A stretch of 64,000 nt of DNA, taken from the NCBI GenBank assembly GCA_029984035.1, contig JASBYJ010000001.1:213534-277533 (forward strand), written 5' to 3'. This document shows positions 23,358 to 27,557 of the stretch, one piece after another; position 1 is the first letter of the stretch; each line of letters opens with the position of its first letter. This stretch comes from Conchiformibius sp. (GTDB taxonomy: Bacteria; Pseudomonadota; Gammaproteobacteria; Burkholderiales; Neisseriaceae). The translations under genes and the position numbers were made by a program. The notes under the pieces are model-generated. The model was not told the DNA's origin, did not search any database, and worked only from the letters and a program-made list of their open reading frames with translations.

Positions 23358-25343
23358 ATGCAATTAAATCAGTTAATCCAAGAGTCCGCCTATAAATTAT
23401 CCCAATTTAATGCCAAACAAATTGAGTTTTTGGAAAGCCAAATTACCCAAAAATCGGGCAAGAACGGCGATGTACCCCATATTCCTTGCTTGGTACGCAA
23501 AAAAATGGTCAAACTCACGCCCGAAGAGGCCGTGCGCCAACTCTACCTGCTCAAACTCCATCAGGACTACGGCTATCCCTACGAACGCATGGAATTGGAA
23601 TATTCGGTTGCATTTGGGCGCGAGAAAAAACGTGCCGATATTGTAATTTTTGACCGTGATAATCCGAATGTGGTGTACATCATCGTTGAACTGAAAAAAC
23701 CCAAATTAAAAGACGGAAAAGAACAATTAAAATCCTATTGCAACGCCACCGGCGCACCGATTGGCGTATGGACAAACAGCGATGCCATTTCTTATTACAA
23801 CCGCCGCGACCCCAATTATTTCAAAGACATTCCTAATATTCCCAGTGTTCACGAAAAATTATCCGATATTTTGCAAGAGCGCTGGACGATTGATGATTTA
23901 ATCAAAAATGACAAAATCGCCACCCAACGCAAATCATTAAAAGATTTGGTGATTGAAATGGAAGACGAGGTGTTGGCCAATGCAGGGGTCGATGTTTTTG
24001 AAGAATTGTTTCAGCTGATTTTTACCAAGCTTTATGACGAGATGGAGAGCACCCGAAATAAAGAGCGCCATTTGGAATTTCGCAATTATGGTGACACCGA
24101 AAACGAACTTAAAACCAAAATCCAAGCGCTTTTTGATAAAGCAAAAAGTAAATGGGAAGGCGTATTTGCGGAAAGCAGCAAAATCAACTTATCACCATCG
24201 CATTTAGCCATTTGCGTATCGTCATTGGAAGAAGTCAAACTTTTTAATTCCAATTTGGACGTGGTGGATGAAGCTTTTGAATACCTCATCAACAAATCAT
24301 CAAAAGGAGAAAAAGGGCAATATTTTACCCCGCGCTATGTGATTGATATGTGCGTCAAAATGCTTGACCCTAAGCCGTCTGAAACCGTGATTGACACCGC
24401 CGCGGGCAGTTGCGGTTTTCCAGTACACGCCATTTTTCATGTCTGGGAAAAACAGCTTAAAGAAAAAGGGCGTGAACGTTCCCATCTATTCACTGCCGAA
24501 CAAAAATTGCCCGAACAGGTTGATTATGTGCAGGAAAAAGTCTTTGCCATTGATTTTGATGAAAAAGCGGTGCGTGTTGCCCGCACACTAAACCTCATCG
24601 CAGGTGATGGACAAACCAATGTTTTACATTTAAATACTTTGGATTATGAACGTTGGGACGACTTTACCAAAGATGAAGCATGGAGCGATATTTACGGCAA
24701 TGGCTGGAAAAAACTGCGTAAATTACGTAAAACCAAAGAGCAAAACCGTGATTTTGGATTTGATATTTTGATGGCCAATCCACCCTTTGCAGGCGACATC
24801 AAAGAAACCCGCATTTTGGCACGCTATGAACTCGGCAAAAACAGCAAAGGCAAGCAACAAACCAAAGTCGGACGCGATATTTTGTTTATTGAGCGTAATT
24901 TGGATTTTTTAAAAGATGGCGGACGTATGGCAATTGTGTTGCCGCAAGGACGTTTCAATAATTCCAGCGACAAGCATATCCGTGATTTTATTGCCGAACG
25001 CTGCCGTATTTTGGCGGTGGTGGGTTTGCACGGCAATGTCTTTAAACCGCATACAGGCACCAAAACGTCCGTTTTATTTGTGCAGAAATGGCACGATGAA
25101 CTTTGCCCCAAAGTGGACGACTATCCGATTTTCTTTGCCACCATGCAAAGCCCGAGCAAAGACAATTCGGGCGACAAAATCCATGTGAAGCATTCGGACG
25201 GTCTGCCCGTTTTGGACGGACACGGGCATTTGATTGTGGAACACGATTTGTTTAATCACGATGGTTTGACACAAGACGGCATTGCCGAAGCCTTTATTGA
25301 ATTTGCCAAAAAAGAAGGTTTGTCTTTTGTGGGAAAGGATTAA
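23358..25343 (+). CDS. Restriction-modification fusion protein: N-terminal HsdR-N/PD-(D/E)xK nuclease-like domain plus gamma-class N6-adenine DNA methyltransferase (BcgI-like Type IIB/IIG RM subunit, or Type I-like M subunit)
   Basis: 661 aa. Residues ~55-150 match the HsdR N-terminal nuclease-like fold (RADIVIFD ... VYIIVELKKPK ... QLKSY ... GVWTN). The C-terminal half has MTase motif I (DTAAGSCGFPV) and motif IV (MANPPFAG). Codon usage is AT-rich and few DUS are present. Confidence 0.8.
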   Translation: MQLNQLIQESAYKLSQFNAKQIEFLESQITQKSGKNGDVPHIPCLVRKKMVKLTPEEAVRQLYLLKLHQDYGYPYERMELEYSVAFGREKKRADIVIFDRDNPNVVYIIVELKKPKLKDGKEQLKSYCNATGAPIGVWTNSDAISYYNRRDPNYFKDIPNIPSVHEKLSDILQERWTIDDLIKNDKIATQRKSLKDLVIEMEDEVLANAGVDVFEELFQLIFTKLYDEMESTRNKERHLEFRNYGDTENELKTKIQALFDKAKSKWEGVFAESSKINLSPSHLAICVSSLEEVKLFNSNLDVVDEAFEYLINKSSKGEKGQYFTPRYVIDMCVKMLDPKPSETVIDTAAGSCGFPVHAIFHVWEKQLKEKGRERSHLFTAEQKLPEQVDYVQEKVFAIDFDEKAVRVARTLNLIAGDGQTNVLHLNTLDYERWDDFTKDEAWSDIYGNGWKKLRKLRKTKEQNRDFGFDILMANPPFAGDIKETRILARYELGKNSKGKQQTKVGRDILFIERNLDFLKDGGRMAIVLPQGRFNNSSDKHIRDFIAERCRILAVVGLHGNVFKPHTGTKTSVLFVQKWHDELCPKVDDYPIFFATMQSPSKDNSGDKIHVKHSDGLPVLDGHGHLIVEHDLFNHDGLTQDGIAEAFIEFAKKEGLSFVGKD

Positions 25344-25372
25344 GCCCTTTTGACGAAGCCAAATATCAGGCT

Positions 25373-26776
25373 TTGTTGAAAGGGCTGGAGGTGAGAGAGG
25401 TCTTGTTATCCATTATCAGTAAAAACAAAGATTATAGATTTGATACTGATTTTTGGACAAAAGAACCTAAACAAAATCCAAATTTAACCTATATTAAAAT
25501 TGGTGATTGCCTTTTAAAATCACAATATGGGATTTCTATTGCTATGAATGAAGATGGGAAAGGTATTCCAATTTATAGAATGAATGAAATTCATAATATG
25601 TTATGTGATTTTTCTGTATCAAAATGCGCCGATATATCAGACTTAGAAAAGGAAATTTTTTTATTAAACGACAGAGATGTTTTGTTTAATAGGACAAATT
25701 CTTTTGAATGGGTTGGTAGAACAGGAATTTTTTACCAGCAGCATGATATGGATTTTATTTTTGCTTCTTACCTTGTACGATTTGTTCCCAATGAGGAGGT
25801 TATCTTACCTGAATATTTAACTGCATACCTTAATACAAAATATGGTATTTGGGATTTAAAAAGACGGGCTAGGCAGTCTATCAATCAAACGAATATCAAC
25901 CCAGAAGAAGTAAAAGAAACTTTTATCCCTTTATTAGATAAAAGTATCCAATTGAAAATTAAAGATTATTTTGATAGTGCAAAAGTATCTTTAATGAAAT
26001 CAAATTGTATATACACCGAAGCCGAAAATCTATTATTAGAAAACTTAGGCTTAAAAAACTTTCAGGCAGCCTGCAATCCGGTCAATATCAAATCTTTAAA
26101 ACAAAGTTTCTTAAAAACAGGCAGATTGGATGCGGAATTTTACCAACCGTTTTATGAGCAATTGGAACAGCATATCCGCAATCATACGCACGGCTTCAAG
26201 CCTTTAAGCAAGGTATGCCGCCTGAAAGATAAAAACTATACGCCTAAAGATAATCAGGAATATGACTATATTGAATTATCCAATATCGGAAATTCAGGCG
26301 AAATTACAGGCAGCACGCGGGCATTCGGTAAAGACCTGCCTTCCCGTGCAAGGCGGAAAGTACAAAGCAATGATGTGGTGATTTCCAGTATTGAAGGTTC
26401 ATTGCAAAGTTGTGCCATTGTGCCGCCGCAATATGATGGCGCTTTATGTTCAACGGGTTTTTATGTATTGTCGCCCAATGAAATAAATCCGGAAACATTA
26501 TTGGTTTTGTTCAAATCATCTTTGATGCAAGGAGTTTTAAAACGAAATTGTTCAGGAACCATTTTGACCGCTATCAACAAAGATGACTTGCTCAATATTC
26601 CTGTACCGCTTATTGACCCAGAAACCCAAACCCAAATCGCCGACCATATCCGCCAAAGCAATGCCTTACGCCAAAAAGCACATTCGCTGCTGGCGCAAGC
26701 CCAATCCGCAGTTGAAACGGAAATTGAAAATAATTCAATTAATTCAGTAAATTGCGGGGGGGGGGGTAAACCTTGA
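25373..26776 (+). CDS. hsdS: Restriction-modification specificity (S) subunit with two target-recognition domains
   Basis: 467 aa, TTG start. Two TRDs separated by a conserved central helix (AENLLLENLGLKNFQ) and a C-terminal conserved region (LLAQAQSAVETEIE). Ends ...CGGGGKP* right after a homopolymeric G tract. Confidence 0.85.
   Translation: MLKGLEVREVLLSIISKNKDYRFDTDFWTKEPKQNPNLTYIKIGDCLLKSQYGISIAMNEDGKGIPIYRMNEIHNMLCDFSVSKCADISDLEKEIFLLNDRDVLFNRTNSFEWVGRTGIFYQQHDMDFIFASYLVRFVPNEEVILPEYLTAYLNTKYGIWDLKRRARQSINQTNINPEEVKETFIPLLDKSIQLKIKDYFDSAKVSLMKSNCIYTEAENLLLENLGLKNFQAACNPVNIKSLKQSFLKTGRLDAEFYQPFYEQLEQHIRNHTHGFKPLSKVCRLKDKNYTPKDNQEYDYIELSNIGNSGEITGSTRAFGKDLPSRARRKVQSNDVVISSIEGSLQSCAIVPPQYDGALCSTGFYVLSPNEINPETLLVLFKSSLMQGVLKRNCSGTILTAINKDDLLNIPVPLIDPETQTQIADHIRQSNALRQKAHSLLAQAQSAVETEIENNSINSVNCGGGGKP
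26756..26766. repeat. Homopolymeric G tract (9 visible by my count; 11 implied by the ORF-track reading frame) two codons upstream of the hsdS stop, a candidate slipped-strand phase-variation site
   Basis: Encodes the Gly run in ...NCGGGGKP*. A -1 change in tract length reads [22 protein letters not shown]... directly into the downstream partial S ORF at 26793. Confidence 0.7.
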
Positions 26777-26792
26777 AGACCCGAATGTTTGC

Positions 26793-27557
26793 TTGGAAAA
26801 AGCTTTGTACCATCAACGCTTGGCAGAATGGACGTTGTTGGAAAGCCTGCTGTTTGGCCGCAGGCTGCCTGAAAATACCGCCGTTCTGCCTTTCAGCCAA
26901 TCGTTTGGCACAAGCGGGCGTTTGGACGCGGAATATTATCAGCCTAAATTTAACCGCCTGTTGCAACACTTGAAAAAATATCCGCACGCCAAATTAGGCG
27001 TTTTGACGGATTTAAACAAATCCGTTGAACCAGGCTCGGAAGCCTATCGTGATAAAGGCGTGCCGTTTGTGCGGGTGGCAGATTTATCGGTATTCGGTAT
27101 CGCGCCTACCGATAAATTTTTAAATCCGGATGATTTTTATGAAACCATCCGTCCTAAAAAAGACACCGTGTTGCTGAGTAAAGACGGTACGGTCGGCATC
27201 GCCTACCGCGTGCCGCAGGATTTGGACATGATTACTTCGGGCGCGATTGTGCATTTGCGCATCAAGCCCGAATACCGCGAAAGCCTGCTGCCTGATTATC
27301 TGGCGTTGGTGCTCAATTCGCCTGCCGTGCAAATGCAGGCGCAACGTGATGCCGGCGGCTCTATTATCCAACATTGGAAACCTTCGGAAATTAAGGAAGT
27401 CATCATTCCCGTACTGCCCGAAGAGCAGCAACGTGAAATAGCTAATAAAATTCAAGAAAGTTTTGAATTAAAAAGACAAAGCGAAGATTTGCTATCTAGG
27501 GCAAAGTATTTGGTTGAACGGGAAATTGAAAACTCCGCGTACTTTCAGGCTGCCTGA
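26793..27557 (+). CDS. Partial specificity-subunit module (central conserved region, one alternative TRD, C-terminal conserved region), in a different frame from the preceding hsdS
   Basis: 254 aa, TTG start. Begins with a central-helix-like segment, then [12 protein letters not shown] (compare TGRLDAEFYQP at the start of TRD2 in the upstream hsdS), and ends with the conserved [15 protein letters not shown] helix. Confidence 0.7.

Follow-up and report, generated by a model that had tools for sequence, protein, structure and literature searches.

A probably phase-variable specificity gene beside a candidate BcgI-like nuclease-methyltransferase fusion in Conchiformibius sp.

What kind of enzyme is made by a restriction-modification locus in which a nuclease-like domain is joined to the methyltransferase, the specificity gene is interrupted, and no helicase-type HsdR stands alongside? 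The question is raised by a locus at 23358-27557 of a 64-kb stretch of DNA from a Conchiformibius sp. (contig JASBYJ010000001.1, positions 213,534 to 277,533), called the window below. Between a 3' fragment of leuS and mnmG it contains three open reading frames (ORFs) on the same strand, named RM (restriction-modification), S1 and S2 (specificity). The original prediction took them for a nuclease-methyltransferase fusion with separate specificity subunits, and its ORF positions and quoted motifs were all recovered at the expected residues.

23358..25343, plus strand: RM gene, 661 amino acids (aa), with a nuclease-fold domain, a helical connector, a gamma-class N6-adenine methyltransferase and a short C-terminal tail
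25373..26776, plus strand: S1, a 467-aa specificity protein with two target recognition domains (TRDs), ending just past the G tract at G11
26756..26766, plus strand: G11 homopolymer, the slipped-strand switch between two-TRD and three-TRD specificity proteins
26793..27557, plus strand: S2, 254 aa, a third recognition module, out of frame with S1 at G11

The answer proposed here is a mobile, translocase-free RM + S cassette of BcgI-like (Type IIB-like) kind, with a phase-variable specificity gene and a putative working nuclease. As a whole, this reading is probable, with room left for others. Its parts differ in strength. A phase-variable RM+S methyltransferase is very likely, and an active nuclease falls slightly short of an even chance. 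Domain architecture, intact motifs, frameshift logic, the lack of a nearby translocase and horizontal mobility can all be read from the sequence.

The most characteristic feature of the locus is the poly-G switch, of a kind already published, which the original prediction had passed over. S1 and S2 are one gene split by G11, and a change of 1 nt fuses both. When the tract was varied in silico, G10 or G13 gave a 727/728-aa read-through product with three TRDs, and G9, G11 or G12 gave a stop at 464-467 aa. To speak of separate S subunits was therefore misleading, since the two ORFs are parted just by the tract and form one phase-variable gene. G11 is the sole run of G or C of at least 8 bases in the window. 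A chance origin of the tract was rejected, as only about 0.014 runs of at least 11 bases would be expected. The modules on either side of the tract are as follows.

~25454-25930, plus strand: TRD1 of S1
25940-26044, plus strand: first conserved region (CR1) of S1
~26195-26608, plus strand: TRD2a of S1
26618-26743, plus strand: CR2 of S1
~26985-27413, plus strand: TRD2b of S2, which also has a partial CR1-like helix
27420-27551, plus strand: CR3 of S2

Both S ORFs match Pfam Methylase_S (in S1 at aa 282-427). The second TRD of S1, at aa 28-182, is found by NCBIfam and PADLOC, which assign two TRDs to S1 and one to S2. The TRD-CR-TRD-CR layout of S1, with its two long helices, is that expected of an HsdS-type subunit. 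S2 is 26% identical to the TRD2a-CR2 half of S1 and is, on this comparison, a copy that has diverged from this second half, with the final part of the central helix, one TRD and the C-terminal helix. Its identity to the third module of the Mannheimia, Moraxella and Neisseria sp. 83E34 loci is 65-73%. An AlphaFold2 model of the 727-aa S protein fused in silico (pLDDT 78) contains three TRDs, and its long helices span aa 190-224, 416-457 and 683-726. In a fold search with Foldseek, S proved to have a generic HsdS fold, with both Type I HsdS proteins and S.BsaXI among the best matches.

Related loci carry the same kind of switch. RM homologues 70-92% identical were found in 410 loci of a species-representative genome collection. 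Identity is 87-92% in Moraxella, Mannheimia, Alysiella, Wielerella and other Neisseria, and 70-78% in Bacteroidota, Spirochaetota, Campylobacterota and one Bacillota genome. Gene neighbourhoods were compared for 87 related loci from several phyla, in which an S gene of approximately 460-480 aa starts 30-33 nt after the RM gene. A third, S2-like module is present in 18 of them, either fused (705-728 aa) or split off, and all but two of these (16 of 18) have a simple repeat exactly at the module junction. The type of repeat depends on the lineage.

G9-12: Mannheimia, Rodentibacter, Neisseria sp. 83E34
AG10-28: Moraxella
AGAC7: Treponema
C10: Bacteroidales

Both switch states occur among the relatives (G10/G11 and G12 in Mannheimia, AG13 and AG17 in Moraxella). 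Fused three-TRD proteins (700-732 aa, 99% query coverage) make up the majority among the 120 matches listed. The locus fits the arrangement known as extended phase-variable hsdS, in which there are three TRDs, a repeat lies between TRD2a and TRD2b, and tract length sets a two- or three-TRD product. An S2-like TRD (46-73% identical) is the terminal TRD in about half of the loci, which suggests an ancestral TRD1-TRD2b gene that gained TRD2a-CR2 by insertion.

The RM protein joins two catalytic domains in one chain. Its features are listed here with their matches.

23520..23843, plus strand: PD-(D/E)xK nuclease-fold domain, aa 55-162 (Pfam HSDR_N_2, E 1e-26)
23637-23639, 23688-23696 and 23724-23738, plus strand: putative catalytic residues D94, E111-x-K113 and Q123xxxY127
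24258..25151, plus strand: N6-adenine methyltransferase domain, aa 301-598 (Pfam N6_Mtase, E 6e-32; Eco57I, E 1e-13)
24393-24419, plus strand: methyltransferase motif I, DTAAGSCGF, aa 346-354
24777-24788, plus strand: methyltransferase motif IV, NPPF, aa 474-477

Further nuclease-domain motifs lie at aa 92-99 (RADIVIFD), 108-116 (IIVELKKPK), 123-127 (QLKSY) and 136-140 (GVWTN). Pfam (E<=0.01) gave no HsdM N-terminal domain in RM, and the HSDR_N_2 domain sits in its place. The predicted fusion of a nuclease-like region, rather than an HsdM N-terminal region, to an N6-adenine methyltransferase therefore held in the domain search, as did the HsdS-type genes that follow it.

Comparison with known structures points in the same direction. 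A single-sequence search of the PDB with RM placed RM.BsaXI on top (E 8e-26; second best 1e-18). With a profile built from distant family members, RM.BsaXI scored E 5e-77 and 263 bits, and the best Type I-like methyltransferases reached about 1e-34 and 122 bits. The nuclease domain gave a match of its own, of 26 bits, which aligns RADIV...VELK with RVDVL...IEVK of BsaXI (D90/E105/K107). The BsaXI nuclease domain was recovered by the family profile only; when the N-terminal 181 aa of RM were searched against the PDB as a single sequence, nothing matched.

The nuclease domain is also conserved. In a set of 32 close homologues, D94, E111, K113, Q123 and Y127 never vary. Among 37 homologues at 32-49% identity, D94 is one of just eight invariant columns, and the other four residues are at least 90% conserved. 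In homologues spanning 32-92% identity, the D...ExK...QxxxY motif is conserved to the same degree as the methyltransferase catalytic motifs. The ratio of nonsynonymous to synonymous substitution (dN/dS) in the nuclease domain is approximately 0.04, the value of the methyltransferase domain, also against the phase-variable Moraxella genes. By this measure, purifying selection on the nuclease domain is equal in strength to that on the methyltransferase domain. The closeness to BsaXI, the nuclease-domain match and the motif conservation favour a nuclease-methyltransferase fusion over a plain HsdM.

A partner that could translocate DNA was looked for as well. The ORF list contains no helicase-type HsdR between the leuS fragment and mnmG, in agreement with the original prediction, and a Type I system with an adjacent HsdR was rejected because none lies in the locus or the window. 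None of the window's ORFs of at least 450 aa encodes a helicase or HsdR, and the ten others tested are all housekeeping genes. Elsewhere, a ResIII-type helicase is nearby in only two of the 87 related neighbourhoods. Clustering of the flanking ORFs in these loci gave no recurrent large protein and no conserved HsdR-like neighbour.

Type IIB enzymes are defined by cleavage on both sides of their site. Four traits of the BcgI-like RM+S members are found here: a PD-(D/E)xK-methyltransferase fusion, a separate HsdS-type subunit, no translocase, and homology to a proven Type IIB enzyme. A BcgI-like architecture is supported by these comparisons. A canonical Type I hsdRMS would look different. Here no HsdR is encoded with the genes, Pfam finds a nuclease-fold domain and no HsdM N-terminal domain, and the profile lies nearer to RM.BsaXI, so the earlier claim that this is no canonical Type I system stands. 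The candidacy as a BcgI-like Type IIB enzyme survived in part. Architecture and RM.BsaXI homology speak for it, but the best PADLOC model carries a Type I label and a published survey treats the Mannheimia locus as Type I.

The cassette also appears to move between genomes. Neisseria sp. 83E34 has a cassette with 77.6% nucleotide identity over ~23390-27418, and its genomic context there is another one. Together with the RM proteins of Moraxella and Mannheimia, which are 87-92% identical, this makes the predicted horizontal acquisition credible. The cassette is found on an integrative mobilisable element in metagenomic contigs as well. Composition had been cited earlier for the same conclusion. 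The locus is indeed AT-rich, but moderately so, with a GC content of 0.413 (0.359 in S1) against 0.477 for the window. The DNA uptake sequence (DUS) of this genome is AGGCTGCCTGAA, with 56 12-mers and 94 10-mer cores in the 64 kb; the classical Neisseria GCCGTCTGAA core has only 3 occurrences in the window, a dialect that suggests a non-classical member of the Neisseriaceae. Three DUS cores lie in the locus against 6.2 expected (Poisson P=0.14), and none in the RM gene against 2.9 expected (P=0.05). Depletion is thus marginal, and to call the locus almost DUS-free was an overstatement.

How could such a cassette work? By analogy with homologues, two 661-aa RM chains would bind one HsdS-type specificity protein as (RM)2S, and this complex would modify a short bipartite site by methylating one adenine per half. 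In the G11 state, translation would end with TRD1-CR1-TRD2a-CR2 (467 aa), and the 727/728-aa TRD1-TRD2a-TRD2b protein would arise when the tract slips to G10 or G13. In this long form, to judge from the Mannheimia homologue, TRD2b may replace TRD2a and so alter one half-site and the spacer. A cell population would thereby alternate between two methylation specificities. The conservation of the N-terminal PD-(D/E)xK domain suggests that it is probably a working nuclease, with which the complex would cut unmethylated sites without ATP-driven translocation.

Several points weigh against this proposal. No report of cleavage was found in the literature for any member of this RM family, and the AlphaFold2 model of the methyltransferase part of RM is poor. 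The start codon of S1 is uncertain (TTG at 25373 or GTG at 25391; a gene caller on the identical Logan contig placed the start 6 codons downstream), and by eye no clear ribosome-binding site was seen for S2. The search for HsdR covered the 64-kb window, and a distant hsdR is possible. The PADLOC model that fits RM best, PDLC03034, is labelled Type I methyltransferase (MTase_I), and the survey takes the Mannheimia locus, as hsdM/hsdS, from the Type I lists of REBASE (PMC7383803). A BcgI-like RM+S pair of Bibersteinia trehalosi, possibly related to the present family, was inactive when cloned (PMC4996451). Finally, an active nuclease combined with a specificity switch should harm the cell at its own unmethylated new sites, and both tract states persist in Mannheimia strains (PMC7383803). 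Since self-damage is expected and both states nevertheless persist, a role in methylation only stays a serious rival, although an unknown safeguard would fit too. In that rival, RM+S would be a methyltransferase of M2S type whose specificity flips with the G tract, altering gene expression, and the nuclease-fold domain would not cut; it might bind DNA or be a regulatory or docking module. Methylation is indeed the sole published activity of the homologues, and switching is more easily tolerated without a nuclease. The Type I labels and the inactive B. trehalosi clone lean the same way. Such a role sits poorly, however, with a nuclease motif as well conserved as the methyltransferase motifs and with a nuclease domain under equally strong purifying selection in phase-variable lineages. 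In addition, the homologous BsaXI residues have been targets of mutagenesis, and a canonical PD-(D/E)xK site is implicated in BsaXI cleavage (PMC11997821). A methylation-only phase-variable regulon (phasevarion) is possible but rather unlikely.

A translocating enzyme is a different alternative to the BcgI-like cassette. An HsdR encoded elsewhere could join the M+S core to form an ATP-dependent translocating restriction enzyme of canonical Type I. The S protein has an ordinary HsdS-type fold and matches Type I HsdS proteins besides S.BsaXI, the PADLOC label agrees, and the part of the genome seen is 64 kb long. Against this stand the absence of HsdR within those 64 kb and of a conserved helicase partner in the 87 neighbourhoods, and the nuclease-fold domain in the position of an HsdM N-terminal domain. 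The cassette also moves as RM+S alone, including on the integrative mobilisable element, and its profile is much nearer to BsaXI than to Type I HsdM proteins. Such a system is very unlikely here. A remnant of the methylation-associated defence system (MADS), keeping a MAD2-like methyltransferase and a MAD5-like specificity subunit, was considered too, because the best NCBIfam matches are MAD2 (322 bits) and MAD5 (124 and 82 bits) and the PADLOC mad2 and mad5 models also match. The scores of 322 and 124 bits lie far under the NCBIfam cut-offs of 720 and 400, the locus and its 87 relatives contain no other mad genes, and PDLC03034 fits RM over its full length at 1236 bits. With sub-cut-off scores and the other mad genes missing, this candidate was rejected as effectively refuted, and its probability is negligible.

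Between the leuS fragment and mnmG, the borders of the cassette can be placed closely. The 5' edge is marked by one further feature.

23275..23303, plus strand: strong terminator-like hairpin, a 12-bp stem followed by a T run, which closes the leuS fragment

The leuS ORF itself (22692-23264) encodes the last ~190 aa of leucyl-tRNA synthetase (TIGR00396 positions 681-842 of 843) and directly adjoins a zur/fur-like gene. None of the large ORFs in the 64-kb window contains a 5' part of leuS, so this ORF appears to be a gene fragment beside the cassette. At the other end, the stop codon and last residues of S2 (FQAA) lie inside the uptake sequence AGGCTGCCTGAA at 27547-27558. A DUS thus marks the 3' edge of the cassette, approximately 40 nt before the mnmG ATG (~27597).

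Other genes accompany the module in related loci. For instance, the metagenomic contigs L089 and L090 (3617-8136) have RM and an S gene for three TRDs that contains a G8 tract; in front of them lies a small HTH_3 gene, which may be a controller-type regulator as in Type II systems. The element also carries genes for an integrase, a Mob_Pre relaxase and a primase. An ORF of 205-282 aa follows the S gene or genes, often overlapping, in 19 of the 87 loci from several phyla (L002-L004 ~14221-14856; L008 13391-14239; L016 13514-14308; 16 other loci). It is absent from the window, and Pfam, NCBIfam and PADLOC gave no match for it; close to the C-terminus of the Mannheimia copy lies an Rx4H-like motif (RCHLVH). 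A RhuM-family gene (PF13310), likewise absent from the window, lies just 3' of the RM-S module in 14 of the 87 loci, e.g. at 4967-5959 of L086. In L064 (14556-20556), and similarly in L072 and L045, genes for an ATPase-deaminase, a Piwi-domain (prokaryotic Argonaute-like) protein and a UvrD-type helicase come after RM-S-RhuM, which suggests a defence island. In the Moraxella loci L005-L007, L011 and L024, a convergent tyrosine recombinase gene lies directly after S (~14180-15133, minus strand). Finally, three loci (L036, L049 and L060) have single-chain fusions of RM to a two-TRD S, with RM ORFs of 1158-1199 aa at 64-70% identity.

What would follow for the family and its host? The source names of the family are only "N-6 DNA methylase" or "Type I M subunit". 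A better annotation would name BcgI-like RM fusions that go with a phase-variable specificity gene of three modules. The Neisseriaceae host probably alternates between two methylomes, which, in a bacterium capable of natural transformation, may alter gene expression as well as the barrier that incoming DNA meets. The family could also serve to ask how cells tolerate a switch of restriction specificity, and how a three-TRD protein selects two of its domains. A bolder reading can be formulated, in which the family is a widespread, unusually conserved translocase-free restriction class whose repeat picks between two C-terminal modules and re-targets both methylation and cleavage. It is unlikely. 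If it were true, the cell would need an unknown way to survive its own change of specificity, and the exclusion of the middle TRD in the three-TRD protein would be a new structural principle for HsdS-type subunits.

Known systems share parts of this design. An example from the same bacterial family is NgoAV of Neisseria gonorrhoeae (Neisseriaceae), a Type I system in which a poly-G tract in hsdS switches methyltransferase specificity; there the tract toggles between full-length (two-TRD) and truncated HsdS. NgoAV is a true Type I system with HsdR. MADS is an eight-gene operon, mad1-8, in which defence needs mad2-4 and mad6-8. It uses a MAD2/MAD5 pair related to the pair seen here but needs six more genes.

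The closest structural model is BsaXI, a Type IIB enzyme that assembles as (RM)2S (cryo-EM 8w0p). In the study and its supplement, D90/E105/K107 were targets for mutagenesis as a putative PD-ExK motif, and a canonical PD-(D/E)xK site is implicated in cleavage (PMC11997821). RM is homologous to BsaXI in the nuclease domain, the helical connector and the methyltransferase domain, and the D/E/K triads of the two align; each is paired with a separate two-TRD S subunit. The two share only about 20% identity, however, and BsaXI, with 916 aa, has a "knob" insertion and a C-terminal "paddle" implicated in cleavage. In alignment with BsaXI, RM has no knob-like insertion, and it ends approximately 60 residues past the methyltransferase domain. 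By described layout, it matches instead the RM+S subgroup called "Type I-like, C-terminal tail", to which the BsaXI study assigns BcgI (637 aa), BaeI, HpyUM032XIII (679 aa) and Hso63250II (680 aa) (PMC11997821). BcgI itself resembles RM by description: its 637 aa compare with 661 aa, the domain order is the same, and the HsdS-like subunit is separate. Cleavage on both sides of the site is proven for BcgI, whereas the present enzyme is known from its sequence, and the literature found mentions no phase-variable S for BcgI. Likewise, the single-chain RM-S fusions of the present family parallel the single-chain RMS enzymes of Type IIB.

A BcgI-like system with a tract-dependent S gene is HpyUM032XIII of Helicobacter pylori, in which S1 and S2 are split by G12 and their fusion changes the methylated motif (PMC4450513). 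In HpyUM032XIII and Hpy99XXII, correcting the S frameshift changes or restores the methylated bipartite motif (PMC4450513, PMC3936762). By description, these systems share with the present locus the RM fusion, an S gene interrupted by homopolymeric G and the lack of HsdR, and they are classed as BcgI-like, Type IIB or IIG. The difference lies in the modules. The H. pylori S1 and S2 have one TRD each, so that a half-S homodimer alternates with a two-TRD S there, and a two-TRD with a three-TRD S here.

The nearest relative is the "extended phase-variable hsdS" of the cattle pathogen Mannheimia haemolytica (Atack et al., FASEB J 2019, PMC7383803; REBASE S.MhaD193ORF3115, S1/S2.Mha807AORF10585). 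G10 or G11 gives TRD1+2a, which methylates CAACN4GT, and G12 gives TRD1+2a+2b, which methylates CAACN5TC; TRD2b may, the authors speculate, substitute for TRD2a (PMC7383803). Within the present family, a bipartite site and a change of methylation motif with tract length have been shown only for M. haemolytica. The passages searched mention neither Type IIB nor a nuclease domain. Both loci have the order RM, S(TRD1+TRD2a), G tract, TRD2b, with the tract at the same junction (G10-12 there, G11 here) and no adjacent hsdR; RM is 87% identical and the third module 65% identical. TRD1 and TRD2a are merely 36% identical, and this locus should therefore recognise a different site. The in-frame tract is G12 there and G10 or G13 here, and an extra 211-aa gene follows S in Mannheimia but not here. 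Histophilus somni 129Pt has a four-gene "BcgI-like" operon, with a methyltransferase gene, two "restriction enzyme" genes and a hypothetical gene, in a layout that matches the Mannheimia arrangement. The main ideas are already covered by the Mannheimia and Helicobacter precedents, and nothing here is new in kind. On these comparisons, the locus is a Mannheimia-type extended phase-variable hsdS paired with an RM of BcgI-like architecture.

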